Below, piece after piece: positions 15,001 to 18,000 of a stretch of 20,000 bases of DNA. The position numbers were made by a program. The first letter of the stretch is position 1; every line of letters begins with the position of its first letter. The DNA is from Pseudomonadota bacterium (GTDB lineage: Bacteria; Desulfobacterota; Desulfobacteria; Desulfobacterales; JBDRRP01). Location: assembly GCA_043825735.1 (NCBI GenBank), contig JBDRRP010000045.1, forward strand, positions 50,693 to 70,692, read 5' to 3'.

Positions 15001-18000
15001 CGGCAAAGAAGGATCAACGGCCGTCAAGTAAGGGAACTCGTCGATGCATAGCACCCAGGGCCGCTGCTGCAAAGACAGCAACTCCAGCAATTCGGCCCAC
15101 GTTTTGGGCGTAATTTCCGTTTCCAGATGCCCCTTCAAATCATCGAACACCTGCCTGAGCTGCAGATCGCTTTGGGCCTCGATCGCCTGACTGTAGAGAC
15201 CGCCCCGGATATTAAGCCAATGTCTTACCAGACGGGTCTTGCCCACGCGCCGACGGCCGTAGACGACCAATAGACCACCGCGCTTGGCAGCCGATTCCAA
15301 TTCCAGCAATTCCCGGTCCCGGTTTACGAATTCAAGCTTCATGGAAAATACCATGCCGGAAAACATTATGCTTTTCAAGCATAATGTTTCTGTAGCATAA
15401 AGATCAGCTTGGTTGCAGATGGACACTTTGACTTTTGTTATTCATGCCGGATCGTCGAAGCCAAACAGGGTGCTCTGCATTTTTCGGGTAACGTAGGCCA
15501 CTTGGGAAAGGGTGAAGTAGGCGCCACGGATGCGATGGGAGCGGCGTCGGTGCTGACGGGCGTGTTCTTCTGACCAGAAGAAGACGCAGACCTTTCAGAA
15601 TCCGTCGATGATGCTCGGCGCGTCTAGGGTGGCCAGGTCCAGGTCCGGCACAAAGGCCATCGGATCGGCCCCGGCGGTGCGGACGGCATAGTTCAGATCG
15701 CTGTCGATCTGGATTTCCAGCGGCGCTCGGCAGCAGGCGCACTCGCTTTGCACGCGGATGGACAGATCCTCGTTTCGCAGGCGCCCTTGCACGAAGGGCG
15801 TGGCAAAGACATCGGCCGCTCAGGCCGCGTGGATGGACTCGCCGGTGTCAAAGTCGATCCTATGGGGCGTCTTTTCCACGGTGACCGGGTAGGCCCAGGT
15901 CACCGCCCCGCCCGGGTTTCGAAACAAAAAGGTCATGTGCCGCTGCAAGTCGTCGAGAATGCTGATCACGGTTTCCCGTGACAGATCAAGGGCGCCGGCG
16001 ATATCGTCCGGCGTTACGGGCCGGCCGTAGCGCGGCAGTTCGCGGACCACGAAATGGTGGACCCGGCGGTGACCGGCCGTCATGAACCGGAGGTTCCGCC
16101 CGATTTTTTGTTTTCCCTTTTCGATCTGCTTTTCCCAGAGCACCGGCGGCACACCGATCATGAACTTCCACAGCCCCGCCATAAGCTTGTTGGACATTTT
16201 TCCTCCCCCTTTTCAAGGTCAAACCGTTTTCCGGGAAACGGCAAATAAATTTGACAATCCTTATATTCGGCGATCAATCGGAGACTGTTCTTGACTCCCC
16301 GCGGATTGTCCCGGCAGTAGCGCATCGTAATGCCCAGGATAGGGAGTGAACCTATAGACGGGTCAAGCAGTATTTACTTTTTGGGTTTCGGAACATTCAG
16401 GTTGAGCATGCGGTGGACGCGGCCGGAAAAGAAAGCGCGGTAGGTTTTGGCAAGTGGCACGGCATATCCGGCGGCGGCCGCCAGATTGAAACCGGCCTCG
16501 ATGTAGATGCCGAACCGGATGGAAAAAACCGTGGCCAGGGGCGCCCAGACCAGGAGGCTCAGGGCGATGCAGACCCAGGCCCAGCGCTCCCGGCGGCGGA
16601 AGGGAATCAGGGACAGGAAAAAAAGGCACACGCACCAACCGGCGACGACGGCGCCCAGAACGGAAAAGATCCAGGGGTGGTAGCGGGCCACGGCCTCGTG
16701 AAGATCGGCGCGTGCCCACAGCGCCTTGGCGATGGCGCTGTTATAGGCGGCAAACAGCGGCCCGGTTGAACCGAATGCCATGAATATGCCGAAGGCGATT
16801 CCCAGGCCGCTGTAAACCACCATCCACCATTGCCAGAGCCGAAAACGCTTTGGACCGCCGTGCTGCAATTCACCCATTGTCCACCTGTGATATATTCTTT
16901 TCACCGTGATTCTGTAACCGGCTTATCCACAATTCGCAAATTAACTTTACTCGCAGCACTGAGCTGGAACCACGAAGTGCACGAAGCTGCAAGATGGCGT
17001 TGATGCGTTTTTGATTTGCTGGCGCTGACGACCCTGACCATGAAACTCACGTTTGATGAAACCGTCAAAGGCCAATGCGCCCGTTGATATTTTATTCACC
17101 ACGAGATCGCGATTCATTGTCCGGCCCTGGCCCCGGCGGCGAATGCCGTGATGGCGGTGGCGGTGACCTCCGGCAGTTCCTCCTGGGGGACATGACCGCA
17201 CCCGGCAATGACCTGGAGCCGGCTGCCGGCGATCTCACGGTTAAAGCGCTCGGCATTGGCCAGGGGAATCCACGGGTCCTCGGCGCCCCAGATGATCAGG
17301 GTGGGAACGGCGATCTGCGGGATGCGGGCGACGATGTCGGCGACGGCCTGGTCATCTAATGCCGCCGAGAGCGCCACCTGCGCCGCGAGGGCGCCCTCGG
17401 TGCGCAACCGGTCGAAATAGGCGTCCACCCGTGCCTCGGTCACCCGCTTCGGGTCGTAGTACACCCCTTCGAGCAAGTGGTGGACCATCCAGCGAGAGAA
17501 AAACAGCCCGGCGATGGGCCCCGCCCCGGGCACGGTGGCCGCGCGGATGATCAGCGGTTTTTTGATGGGATACCCGGCGGCGTCGATCAGGACCAGGCGG
17601 TCGATACGCTCGGGGTGCGCAATGGCCAGCATCAGACCGATGCCGCCCCCCAGCGAATTGCCCACGAACACCACGCGCGAGAGCCCCAGTTTCGCCATCC
17701 AGGCATTGACTTCGGCCATGAGGGTCTTGGGTGAATAATCCGCCCCCATGGGCTTTTCCGACCATCCGAACCCCTTCATGTCCAGCGCCACGACCCGGTG
17801 ACCGGCCGATTGCAGTCGGTCAACGATCTCCCGCCAGGTGTCAGTGGAGGAGGCGAACCCGTGGAGCAGCACGATGGGGACCCCGGCGCCCGGGTAATCC
17901 TCGTAGTGGAGCCGAACCCCGTCGACGGTAACGAACCGGTCATGCGCCGACGCCCGGGGCGCCTCCCCGCTGGGCAGTCTTTTCACGAACAGGCCGCACC

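Follow-up and report, generated by a model that had tools for sequence, protein, structure and literature searches.

A 20,000-nt stretch of DNA (the window) was analysed, and positions 15442..16197 of its minus strand could be identified, on comparative sequence grounds, as a single intact gene for a predicted selenoprotein of the MerB (alkylmercury lyase) superfamily, in which both catalytic ligand positions are encoded as selenocysteine (Sec). The explanation that we favour, and hold as a whole with moderate confidence, combines a double-Sec gene, hairpin-directed readthrough of its in-frame UGA codons and a MerB-like carbon-metal(loid) lyase with a Sec/Asp/Sec site. A description of a double-Sec MerB-like family was found neither in the papers searched nor in NCBIfam release 20. 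One table of a 2020 review (PMC7435645) lists a selenoprotein "MerB2"; it was considered as a prior description and rejected, as "MerB" is absent from both the GOS paper (PMC2398784) and the Olavius symbiont paper (PMC1976440), and later reviews give only SaoL, with one Sec.

Gene structure and the decayed second copy

With TGA translated as U, the region forms one frame of 251 codons and a TGA stop (15442-15444), with in-frame UGA at codon 126 (UGA1, 15820..15822, minus strand; motif A-A-U-A-x-D) and codon 201 (UGA2, 15595..15597, minus strand; motif I-x-x-x-F-U), as the first-pass annotation had proposed. Read with table 11, the same DNA breaks into a 125-aa ORF (15820-16197), a 65-aa GTG ORF (15595-15792) and a tail. 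A putative Shine-Dalgarno-like element, GGGGGAGG (16202..16209, minus strand), lies 4 nt ahead of the ATG at 16197, and an A/U-rich hairpin followed by Ts, located 3' of the stop (15362..15388, minus strand), may act as terminator; the latter was not called by the consensus scan. DNA contigs of sequencing run X1, which is maybe the very sample behind the assembly of the stretch, showed zero differences from it across both TGA codons. Nothing on the gene was present in two metatranscriptome runs that belong to the same study as the matching DNA, and these are evidence neither for nor against it.

The 5' remnant of a second copy, reported previously, proved to be real. It occupies 9105..9548 (minus strand) and retains the protein up to about residue 137, with UGA1 and, of the first hairpin (see below), the 5' arm, the remainder being deleted; identity is 85% over residues 1-150, with one TGA, and the similarity breaks off after "...ATPFV", beyond which the frame runs on into pieces of an ATPase gene (8778-9114). 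By blastn, 9139-9596 corresponds to 15788-16244 at 89.7%, 9105-9138 to 15413-15446, 8907-9114 to 14791-14998 and 8778-8908 to 14042-14171. The ATPase_2/DUF234 family gene (Pfam) located downstream of the MerB-like gene (14074..15426, minus strand) was hence duplicated along with it, as the blastn matches of both copies indicate.

Conservation of both TGA codons across relatives

A repeated search of 401 genomes of the order returned the counts given earlier: 42 genomes had a match to the MerB-like protein, and each of the 32 genomes that matched at E <= 2.1e-37 carried at least two in-frame TGA, which were the sole in-frame stop type in 24 of these genomes and accompanied by one further TAA or TAG in eight. 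Two of the carrier genomes, assembled in one and three contigs, may derive from isolates. In the 30 order loci that were extracted, such further codons were the genes' own terminal stops. These loci, from 30 of the 32 carriers and with 35-76% identity, had TGA at both homologous columns in 30/30 cases, and TGA/TGA was likewise present in 80/80 loci of the best 80 of 436 relatives from species genomes. Altogether, two TGA were common to 110/110 loci examined (103 distinct), which belong to several orders and phyla; in a phylum sample (401 genomes), 65 of 87 MerB-superfamily matches carried two TGA. Differences by codon position in the three gene segments were coding-like (0.45/0.33/0.64, 0.41/0.29/0.59 and 0.41/0.36/0.59). 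Sec126, Asp129, Cys153 and Sec201 of the protein were invariant: Asp129 and Cys153 were found in 28/28 aligned sequences, and Asp129 had its counterpart in 30/30 order loci and in all 80 motifs of the best 80 of 436 relatives.

This pattern bears on the possibility that a pseudogene, a misassembly or a set of two to three separate small genes has been taken for one gene. Annotation does split the frame, public protein collections hold the family mostly as 125-residue pieces, and a decayed copy lies 6 kb off. Against these points stand both TGA in every locus examined, the coding-like substitutions after each TGA, a confident MerB fold predicted across all three pieces of the intact frame and, with regard to assembly, the agreement of the independent X1 contigs, though the run may be the source sample. 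We regard this explanation as extremely improbable, and the region is treated below as one intact gene.

Cysteine replaced Sec at site 1 in at least eight relatives (P0018, P0019, P0032, P0033, P0091, P0093, P0095 and P0100), these sequences stopping shortly before site 2, and at site 2 in P0026 and P0092. A Cys/Cys member of the double-Sec family itself was not seen among the relatives examined. In other relatives the two sites are occupied by Ser/Cys, Gly/Leu or Asp/Ser, which implies that a two-ligand site is not a constant feature of the scaffold.

SECIS-like hairpins and decoding of UGA

Each in-frame UGA is followed by a SECIS-like hairpin with a 7-bp stem. Counting the U of UGA as +1, the hairpin after UGA1 (15782..15800, minus strand; CGCCCUU-CGUGC-AAGGGCG) covers +23 to +41, of which +30 to +34 form the loop, and that after UGA2 (15565..15582, minus strand; UUCUUCU-GGUC-AGAAGAA) covers +16 to +33, of which +23 to +26 form the loop. 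The first-pass annotation had placed the two at +21 and +15, which reflects other counting origins, and had claimed compensatory changes in both; these are evident in the pair counts of the order loci and of the 103 distinct loci. In hairpin 1, 91.4% of cells were paired versus 37-61% with slid partners, pair 30-46 was GC in 18 and UA in 9 loci, and the loop in the 103 distinct loci was CGUGC (97) or CGUGU (6). Synonymous sites were frozen here (Pro CCC 29/30, Val GTG 30/30, Gly GGG 29/30), with codon entropies of 0-0.21 bits for Pro134, Val136 and Gly138 compared with 1.46-1.82 bits where these three amino acids are invariant elsewhere. Hairpin 2 was paired in 99.5% of cells, and its compensatory changes comprised pair 22-39 (UA 23, CG 5) and pair 28-33 (UA 25, CG 4); in the 103 distinct loci the latter was UA in 82, CG in 18 and UG in 3 with zero mismatch, and the loop was GGUC in 102. 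Folding energies were -18.6 kcal/mol after UGA1, -16.3 after UGA2 and -4.2 for 60 nt past the terminal TGA. Near the gene, Rfam gave only chance matches at E <= 10 (miRNA, lncRNA and CRISPR-repeat models). Two further structures were considered and left aside as too weak to claim: a small hairpin around UGA1, in which 80% of cells were paired but mismatches were many, and lower-stem extensions of both hairpins (72% paired without compensatory change; outer pairs in 14-22 of 30).

The genome encodes two tRNA-SeC genes, SelA and SelB. The GGUC loop of hairpin 2 is placed as in the formate dehydrogenase selenoprotein genes (fdhA) of this genome, one of which (L126) has GGUCU at +22 to +26. SelB was found in 27 of the 32 carriers, the five carriers lacking it being 81-87% complete; this co-occurrence has little power, since 369/401 genomes of the order have SelB. 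The in-frame TGA in a MerA-like match (L123) was considered as well and turned out to be the ordinary stop of that gene.

It might be supposed instead that the UGA codons are read as Trp, Cys or Gly by suppression or under a changed genetic code, and W is indeed printed at both sites in full-length relatives such as P0002-P0013, which come from gene callers on short metagenome contigs. Both sites, however, align with catalytic Cys and not with Trp, and Cys is the substitute at each of them in relatives; a conserved hairpin accompanies each in-frame UGA and is missing at the terminal one; TGA serves as the terminator both in this gene and in 7/30 orthologues; and the Sec machinery and fdhA genes of the same arrangement are present in the genome. 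Such decoding we judge very improbable. In the Sec-based explanation that we prefer, SelB and tRNA-Sec would decode both in-frame UGA codons as Sec, each via its own downstream hairpin in the coding sequence, and the third UGA, without hairpin, would be read as stop.

Relationship to MerB

Read through, the gene scored 46.7 bits (cut-off 27) with Pfam MerB (PF03243) over residues 106-239, and neither of the two called fragments had a row with this model. In NCBIfam, scores and cut-offs were 44.2/193 for MerB and 40.7/200 for lyase_MerB (MerB proper; NF009710 / NF033555), and 37.2/140 for SaoL (NF040728). The Pfam, NCBIfam MerB and SaoL scores reproduce those of the first-pass annotation. The alignment with PDB MerB set aaCaaD against awCalD and gfCk against sfC, and the family profile matched MerB2 (5c17) at 1.5e-8 with both Sec sites opposite Cys; the two agree on the placement proposed before, with UGA1 opposite MerB Cys96, UGA2 opposite Cys159, and Asp99 kept. 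The AF2 model of the read-through protein had a pLDDT of 88.6 and a pTM of 0.86, and its best 11 PDB fold matches (Foldseek) were all MerB or MerB2, with a probability of 1.00, E down to 6.4e-13 and target-normalised TM of 0.64-0.80.

The predicted model thus has its fold in common with MerB (EC 4.99.1.2; PDB 3F0O, 3F0P, 1S6L; MerB2 5C17), and so are both metal-ligand positions, the proton-donor Asp and the buried Cys117 (here Cys153). The ligands of MerB, Cys96 and Cys159, are in contrast both encoded as Sec here, about 40 extra residues are present at the N-terminus, and the NCBIfam cut-offs for MerB proper are far above the scores obtained. Moreover, the double-Sec gene lacks the mer operon setting expected of MerB proper, and its genome has no MerA over the cut-off (best 383.9 bits versus 454.45). 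The double-Sec family occurs in anaerobes, often together with hgcA; in the 2021 mer survey, as far as its available text goes, zero MerB-only genomes had HgcAB (PMC8261052).

SaoL and a second double-Sec family

In a tree of MerB-superfamily groups (a quick IQ-TREE search, unrooted), the double-Sec family formed its own branch with SH-aLRT 99, and SaoL was the nearest group with SH-aLRT 88. Both this split and the scores far under the NCBIfam cut-offs uphold the claim that the family is distinct from MerB proper and from SaoL. SaoL (NF040728) is likewise a MerB-superfamily selenoprotein of anaerobes, with database entries truncated at UGA and Sec at the position of Cys159. Its single Sec, however, lies within a C-U dipeptide, and the site equivalent to Cys96 is still a Cys, according to the available part of its description (bioRxiv 10.1101/2022.07.06.499078); the protein studied here has F-U at site 2 and U also at site 1. 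A true SaoL of the same phylum (L132) reached 170 bits with the model whose cut-off of 140 contrasts with the 37.2 bits obtained here. The nine-gene SAO neighbourhood of SaoL (ABC transporter, SaoE, SaoC, SaoT, SaoD) is absent from the window, and the ABC-transporter SAO neighbourhood was not recurrent among the best 80 of 436 loci.

Sorting the phylum loci by two profile HMMs separated the family of 15442..16197 (family A) from a second double-Sec MerB-like family of the same phylum (family B; motif U-x-x-E ... U-S-T-M-N-F-F-R-S-E-E). Family B belongs to the same superfamily, likewise has an in-frame TGA at each of the two catalytic positions and was present in 10 of the 22 genomes of the phylum sample that carry family A, and it was not found in the genome of this stretch. 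It differs in reaching only 20-41 bits against the family A profile, in having Glu instead of Asp at +3, in a Sec spacing of 65 residues versus 75, and in grouping with Cys/Cys forms in the unrooted tree, where family A has SaoL as nearest group.

Genomic context

Neighbours within the window encode the ATPase, hydrolases and a methyltransferase. A conserved neighbourhood had been denied before, and this holds only in part: among the loci of the best 80 of 436 relatives, 35 have a MarR- or MerR-family regulator adjoining on the same strand, and recurrent neighbours comprise MarR-family, MerR-family, thioesterase and MFS genes. No conserved cysteine was found in the effector part of the recurrent MerR-family neighbour, so that metal sensing through thiolates does not apply to it. 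In one relative from a metagenome, the protein is joined to an acetyltransferase for arsenic resistance, ArsN2 (150.8 bits, cut-off 125), and this fusion points away from mercury.

The presence of hgcAB in the genome was confirmed (hgcA 429 bits, cut-off 275; hgcB 125.3 bits, cut-off 99; the two adjacent); the pair is located on contig C50, and not on that of the MerB-like gene. Among the carriers, 24/32 have hgcA versus 187/401 genomes of the order overall, related genomes not being independent. The link to methylmercury is weak, because hgcAB lies elsewhere, no MerA reaches the cut-off and co-occurrence with hgcA is modest in non-independent genomes.

Proposed function

The predicted fold and catalytic triad support a MerB-like mechanism. 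Sec126, Asp129 and Sec201 would be set where MerB has Cys96, Asp99 and Cys159; by analogy with MerB, an organometal(loid) compound would be bound through its metal(loid) atom, held between the two selenolates, and Asp129 would protonate the leaving carbon, so that the carbon-metal(loid) bond is cleaved by protonolysis. Judged by this analogy, protonolysis of such a bond at the Sec/Asp/Sec site is the most likely function, with cleavage of bonds like that of methylmercury as working hypothesis. Among possible substrates, methylmercury or some other organomercurial ranks first; the compound may instead be an organoarsenical or contain a different soft metal(loid).

Binding of Hg(II) by a bis-selenolate should be very tight, which makes product release a problem for turnover. 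The poor release expected on general grounds speaks for a real two-Sec protein that is no lyase, with either a redox diselenide or a tight site that sequesters or passes on a soft metal such as Hg(II), or selenium itself. The missing mer operon, the lack of a MerA over the cut-off and the relatives without one or both ligands would fit such a protein too, and for the paired Sec of SaoP, either a diselenide or a shared site for a ligand is considered in the available text of Haft and Gwadz (bioRxiv 10.1101/2022.07.06.499078). Nevertheless, Asp129, the equivalent of the proton donor Asp99, is invariant and would not be needed by a pure binding or redox pair, and the whole MerB fold is kept, including Cys153 (= Cys117). 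We consider the non-lyase function unlikely, albeit to be taken seriously, and retain the lyase as the preferred reading. Chemical precedent for the latter exists: in the available part of PMC10114901, a selone mimic of the MerB site is stated to cleave Hg-C bonds and selenoamino acids to demethylate methylmercury.

Implications

In anoxic sediments, soils and groundwater, the net amount of methylmercury is set by its degradation as much as by its formation. The available text of PMC10114901 states that the enzymes by which anaerobes degrade it independently of mer are not known. The double-Sec family provides a concrete, clonable candidate. The mer survey screened called proteins for Cys96, Asp99, Cys117 and Cys159, as stated in the accessible part of PMC8261052, and screens of this kind would be expected to miss the family, which is widespread in anaerobes (436 relatives in species genomes, 32/401 carriers in the order). 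The family needs its own annotation model, so that pipelines stop splitting such genes.

Two catalytic ligands that are both Sec, each with its own SECIS, are rare in selenium biology, and the second, independent double-Sec case in the MerB superfamily suggests a real chemical advantage. If true, the Sec/Asp/Sec site would be the natural counterpart of the synthetic selone mimics of MerB. Furthermore, it is possible, if still doubtful, that a selenium-based lyase of strict anaerobes, with two Sec recruited independently in at least two lineages of the MerB superfamily, represents the missing mer-independent route by which methylmercury or methylated arsenic may be broken down in mercury-methylating sulfate reducers and syntrophs.

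The MerB-like gene and its relation to MerB

The MerB-like gene runs from 16197 to 15442 on the minus strand as a single 251-codon frame with an ATG start, a GGGGGAGG box ahead of it as read from the sequence, and a TGA end. Two further TGA codons lie in frame, UGA1 at codon 126 (15822-15820, minus strand) and UGA2 at codon 201 (15597-15595, minus strand); table 11 breaks the frame into a 125-residue ORF, a 65-residue GTG ORF and an uncalled tail. Read through, it scores 46.7 bits with Pfam MerB (PF03243, cut-off 27) over residues 106-239, a model that its separate fragments do not pass. 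Alignment to solved structures, by sequence and by a 28-sequence family profile alike, places U126-A-A-D129 on Cys96-x-x-Asp99 of MerB, C153 on Cys117 and U201 on Cys159. Re-translation and these alignments agree with the first-pass annotation, which had proposed one 251-codon gene with UGA at the Cys96 and Cys159 positions and Asp99 kept; its Pfam and NCBIfam scores were reproduced.

The 28-sequence alignment was also the input for an AlphaFold2 model, which reached a mean pLDDT of 88.6 and a pTM of 0.86. Its top 11 matches among solved structures were all MerB or MerB2 (E down to 6.4e-13, target-normalised TM 0.64-0.80), followed by MarR-type winged-helix proteins matching the N-terminal part of the model with E > 0.02. 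Residues invariant in the alignment include W101, P104, T110, G119, E120, A125, U126, D129, P134, V136, G138, C153, I196, F200, U201, F207, S209 and E210.

Conservation of both UGA codons

The search of the 401-genome Desulfobacterales sample, when repeated, returned the 42 matching genomes described before, and all 32 with E ≤ 2.1e-37 carried at least two in-frame TGA. Loci were extracted from 30 of these 32 carriers (G067 and G182 being without a locus). All 30, including L019, which ends at a contig end, and L013, with a short and divergent C-terminus, have exactly two TGA in the same two alignment columns ahead of their own stop (TAA 15, TAG 8, TGA 7). With each species represented by a single genome, 436 loci encode a relative, and the best 80 of the 436 are TGA/TGA without exception (80/80). 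These 80 come throughout from metagenome-assembled genomes, whose record titles place them in Desulfobacterales, Syntrophales (Smithellaceae among them), Desulfomonilaceae, Desulfatiglandales, Nitrospirota, Candidatus Abyssobacteria and further groups.

Pairs of loci differ on average by 0.45/0.33/0.64 at codon positions 1/2/3 in the segment ahead of UGA1, by 0.41/0.29/0.59 in the segment from UGA1 to UGA2 and by 0.41/0.36/0.59 in the segment beyond UGA2, a pattern from which it follows that all three gene pieces evolve as coding sequence. Contigs of a public DNA run were identical to the stretch over both TGA; since this run may be the source sample, the agreement is not independent.

Signals for selenocysteine insertion

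Each UGA had been said to be followed by its own conserved hairpin with compensatory changes, and this was seen again in 30 orthologues and in 103 distinct loci. Hairpin 1 (CGCCCUU-CGUGC-AAGGGCG, minus strand) extends from +23 to +41 after UGA1, the U of UGA being +1. Over the 30 orthologues 91.4% of its cells pair, against 37-61% with slid partners, and pair 30-46 is G-C in 18 but U-A in 9. Hairpin 2 (UUCUUCU-GGUC-AGAAGAA, minus strand) extends from +16 to +33 after UGA2, with 99.5% of cells paired over orthologues and double changes at two pairs (U-A 23/C-G 5 and U-A 25/C-G 4). In the 103 distinct loci its closing pair is U-A 82 times, C-G 18 times and U-G 3 times and is never mismatched; GGUC forms the loop in 102 of them. 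As the closing pair connects position 1 of a Trp/Arg codon with position 3 of the Ser codon that follows, it is not explicable by selection on the protein.

Codon choice within both hairpins is frozen: Pro134 is CCC in 29/30, Val136 GTG in 30/30 and Gly138 GGG in 29/30 within hairpin 1, while within hairpin 2 Phe206 is TTC in 25/25, Phe207 TTC in 30/30 and Ser209 TCA in 25 or TCG in 5. At invariant Pro, Val, Gly and Ser residues elsewhere in the gene, codon entropies are 1.46-2.42 bits. A part of the pairing potential of hairpin 2 does come with the peptide, because Cys/Cys forms share F-F-x-S-E-E downstream of their second site; the peptide does not account for the fixed codons or for the covariation between Trp/Arg and Ser. 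Folding of the 60 nt downstream gave -4.2 kcal/mol for the terminal TGA versus -18.6 for UGA1 and -16.3 for UGA2. The formate dehydrogenase genes of this genome serve as an internal control: their in-frame TGA precedes a loop, GGUCU or GGGCU, that occupies +22 to +26, compared with +23 to +26 for the GGUC loop of hairpin 2. A small hairpin enclosing UGA1 (CGGCC-UGAGC-GGCCG, 15813-15827, minus strand), with 80% of cells pairing over the 30 orthologues and many mismatches, may be a mere consequence of the Ala codons flanking UGA.

In relatives each site is found replaced by Cys. Among database proteins, site 1 is Cys in eight that stop shortly before site 2 (P0018, P0019, P0032, P0033, P0091, P0093, P0095 and P0100), and two (P0026 and P0092) combine Ser at site 1 with Cys at site 2. 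Full-length metagenome proteins printed with Trp at both sites are gene calls reading TGA as Trp.

The source genome has two tRNA-SeC genes, SelB and SelA. SelB was detected in 27 of the 32 carriers, the remaining five being 81-87% complete; given its presence in 369/401 genomes of the order, this co-occurrence has little power as a test. Overall, it is very probable that the MerB-like gene encodes a genuine two-Sec selenoprotein. Separately, the tRNA-SeC genes and two SelB-wing_3 matches of the source genome lie on contigs C62 (68966-69063), C107 (92540-92631 and 94419-94556) and C88 (25797-25937). On C107 one tRNA-SeC and the weaker of the SelB-like matches are about 1.8 kb apart, and the two could form a second Sec-insertion set.

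Separateness from MerB, SaoL and other relatives

The protein stays far short of the NCBIfam cut-offs for MerB (44.2/193), lyase_MerB (40.7/200) and SaoL (37.2/140), and passes no model of NCBIfam release 20. A genuine SaoL of the same phylum, in contrast, obtains 170 bits on the SaoL model versus 37. In an unrooted quick IQ-TREE of 57 rows, comprising 28 members of the family (family A; the incomplete L013 and L019 omitted) and 29 of the 30 best MerB-superfamily loci of the 401-genome phylum sample (L156 omitted, being itself a family A member), a branch with SH-aLRT 99 divides family A from the other rows; its nearest group consists of three SaoL-like rows (support 88). The family is thus distinct from MerB proper and from SaoL, as had been proposed, and no single-Sec, Ser/Cys or degenerate relative reaches the MerB or SaoL cut-offs.

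The phylum sample held 87 PF03243 matches in 66/401 genomes, with two TGA in 65, one in 10 and none in 12, and all were sorted with two profile HMMs. The 65 double-TGA loci comprise 22 of family A, 42 of a second family, B, and one third type. Family B has the motifs G-Q-U-A-F-E and A-U-S-T-M-N-F-F-R-S-E-E, a Sec-Sec spacing of 65 residues and a length of 235-250 residues, and falls short of the MerB and SaoL cut-offs. It is absent from the source genome and occurs in other genomes of the phylum (loci L144, L145, L147-L151, L153-L155, L158-L168, L170-L173, L175-L180, L182, L184, L186-L189, L199, L200, L203, L204 and L209); in 10/22 cases family A shares its genome with family B. In the unrooted tree family B clusters with the Cys/Cys forms L134, L136, L142, L143 and L152. 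The third type, L197 (G508:C1), reads ..YAM-U-AGG.. and ..GF-U-PRVQFFCTEEH, without Asp at +3, and scores 60.6 bits with the family A profile versus 40.3 with that of family B. The sample also contained single-TGA MerB-like genes with ..SL-U-RKMVFLRDEE.. (L135 and L137, in G560 and G745); their assignment to SaoL was rejected, L135 scoring 52.9 bits against the cut-off of 140.

SaoL is described in a preprint by Haft and Gwadz (bioRxiv 10.1101/2022.07.06.499078) as having a single Sec in a C-U dipeptide, and a term search of its text returned no two-Sec MerB relative. Two reviews of prokaryotic selenoproteins, from 2022 and 2026, mention 'MerB' in their searchable portions in the SaoL row alone, and the later of them gives SaoL one Sec. 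Full-text literature on selenoprotein MerB, organomercurial lyase or hgcA, a scope without subscription-only papers, supplements and GenBank record annotations, gave nothing further.

Genomic context

In the window the gene has an ATPase_2/DUF234 ATPase gene downstream and an ORF without family hit upstream. Gene and ATPase belong to a duplicated block (8778-9711 and 14042-16381). At least three deletions have eroded the copy at 8778-9711, which keeps residues 1 to about 137, including UGA1, at 9105-9548, the 5' remnant noted earlier. The stretch between the two copies includes an AAA_14/DUF4143 ATPase gene (10108-11379). Elsewhere in the window are a DUF4824/DUF2157 gene pair (2905-4826, minus strand) and an ORF with a caspase (Peptidase_C14) domain (19464-20000, plus strand) that continues past the window end.

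The first-pass annotation had found no conserved neighbourhood in 8 loci, a statement that holds only in part across the 80 loci, where some neighbours recur more than at random. Directly upstream on the same strand there is a MarR-family gene in 18/80, and a MerR-family gene adjoins on the same strand in 17/80 others, upstream in 16 (L040, L060, L062, L067, L070, L072, L075, L076, L079, L090, L091, L095, L096, L101, L106 and L113) and downstream in L058. A 4HBT thioesterase gene occurs in 8/80 loci and an MFS transporter gene in 5/80; in one genus among the 30 order loci, DUF3795 and methyltransferase genes flank the MerB-like gene. The C-terminal part of the MerR-family neighbour is conserved and cysteine-free (..MDKEGWIALLRAAGLD..KWHxEFEKLSP..HQEFLEGLGI..), and because its effector part is without conserved cysteine it is not a metal sensor of the MerR, CueR or ZntR type.

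Possible links to mercury and arsenic and a proposed mechanism

The source genome does carry hgcAB, with hgcA (429 bits against a cut-off of 275) and hgcB (125.3 bits against 99) adjacent on another contig; MerA over its cut-off and further PF03243 matches were absent from it. Its HgcA (L035, G000:C50:19490-20467) has a Cys-Cys pair (..PPGACCGS..) in the N-terminal extension, the place of a Cys-Sec pair in most HgcA proteins according to the preprint text of Haft and Gwadz. With E-values standing in for the cut-off, and among the matches listed, 24 of the 32 order carriers have hgcA at E ≤ 1e-91, three have weak matches only and five none at E ≤ 1e-30; over the whole order sample hgcA exceeds its cut-off in 187/401 genomes. 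The enrichment is modest, and kin genomes are not independent. Family A carriers often have hgcA, whereas the main text of a 2021 mer survey reports HgcAB in no MerB-only genome (PMC8261052); by its description that survey looked through called proteins for the four signature Cys and Asp residues, and would therefore be expected to miss family A. A lead to arsenic instead of mercury is the metagenome protein P0066 (296 aa), a family A member that has W printed at both TGA sites and carries, fused at its C-terminus, an entire ArsN2 arsenic-resistance N-acetyltransferase domain (150.8 bits against a cut-off of 125).

The gene, its recoding signals and the conserved Sec/Asp/Sec plus Cys positions are established here, together with a MerB fold predicted by modelling. 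By analogy with MerB, the two selenolates would hold a metal(loid) atom, and Asp129 would give a proton to the leaving carbon. Such Sec-based lyase chemistry is plausible, since a review, in the part concerned, describes a selone mimic of the MerB site that splits Hg-C bonds and the demethylation of MeHg by selenoamino acids (PMC10114901). The candidate substrate may be an organomercurial, an organoarsenical or another compound; methylmercury itself is a possible choice, if less likely than not. A role of the protein as a carbon-metal(loid) lyase appears more probable than not.
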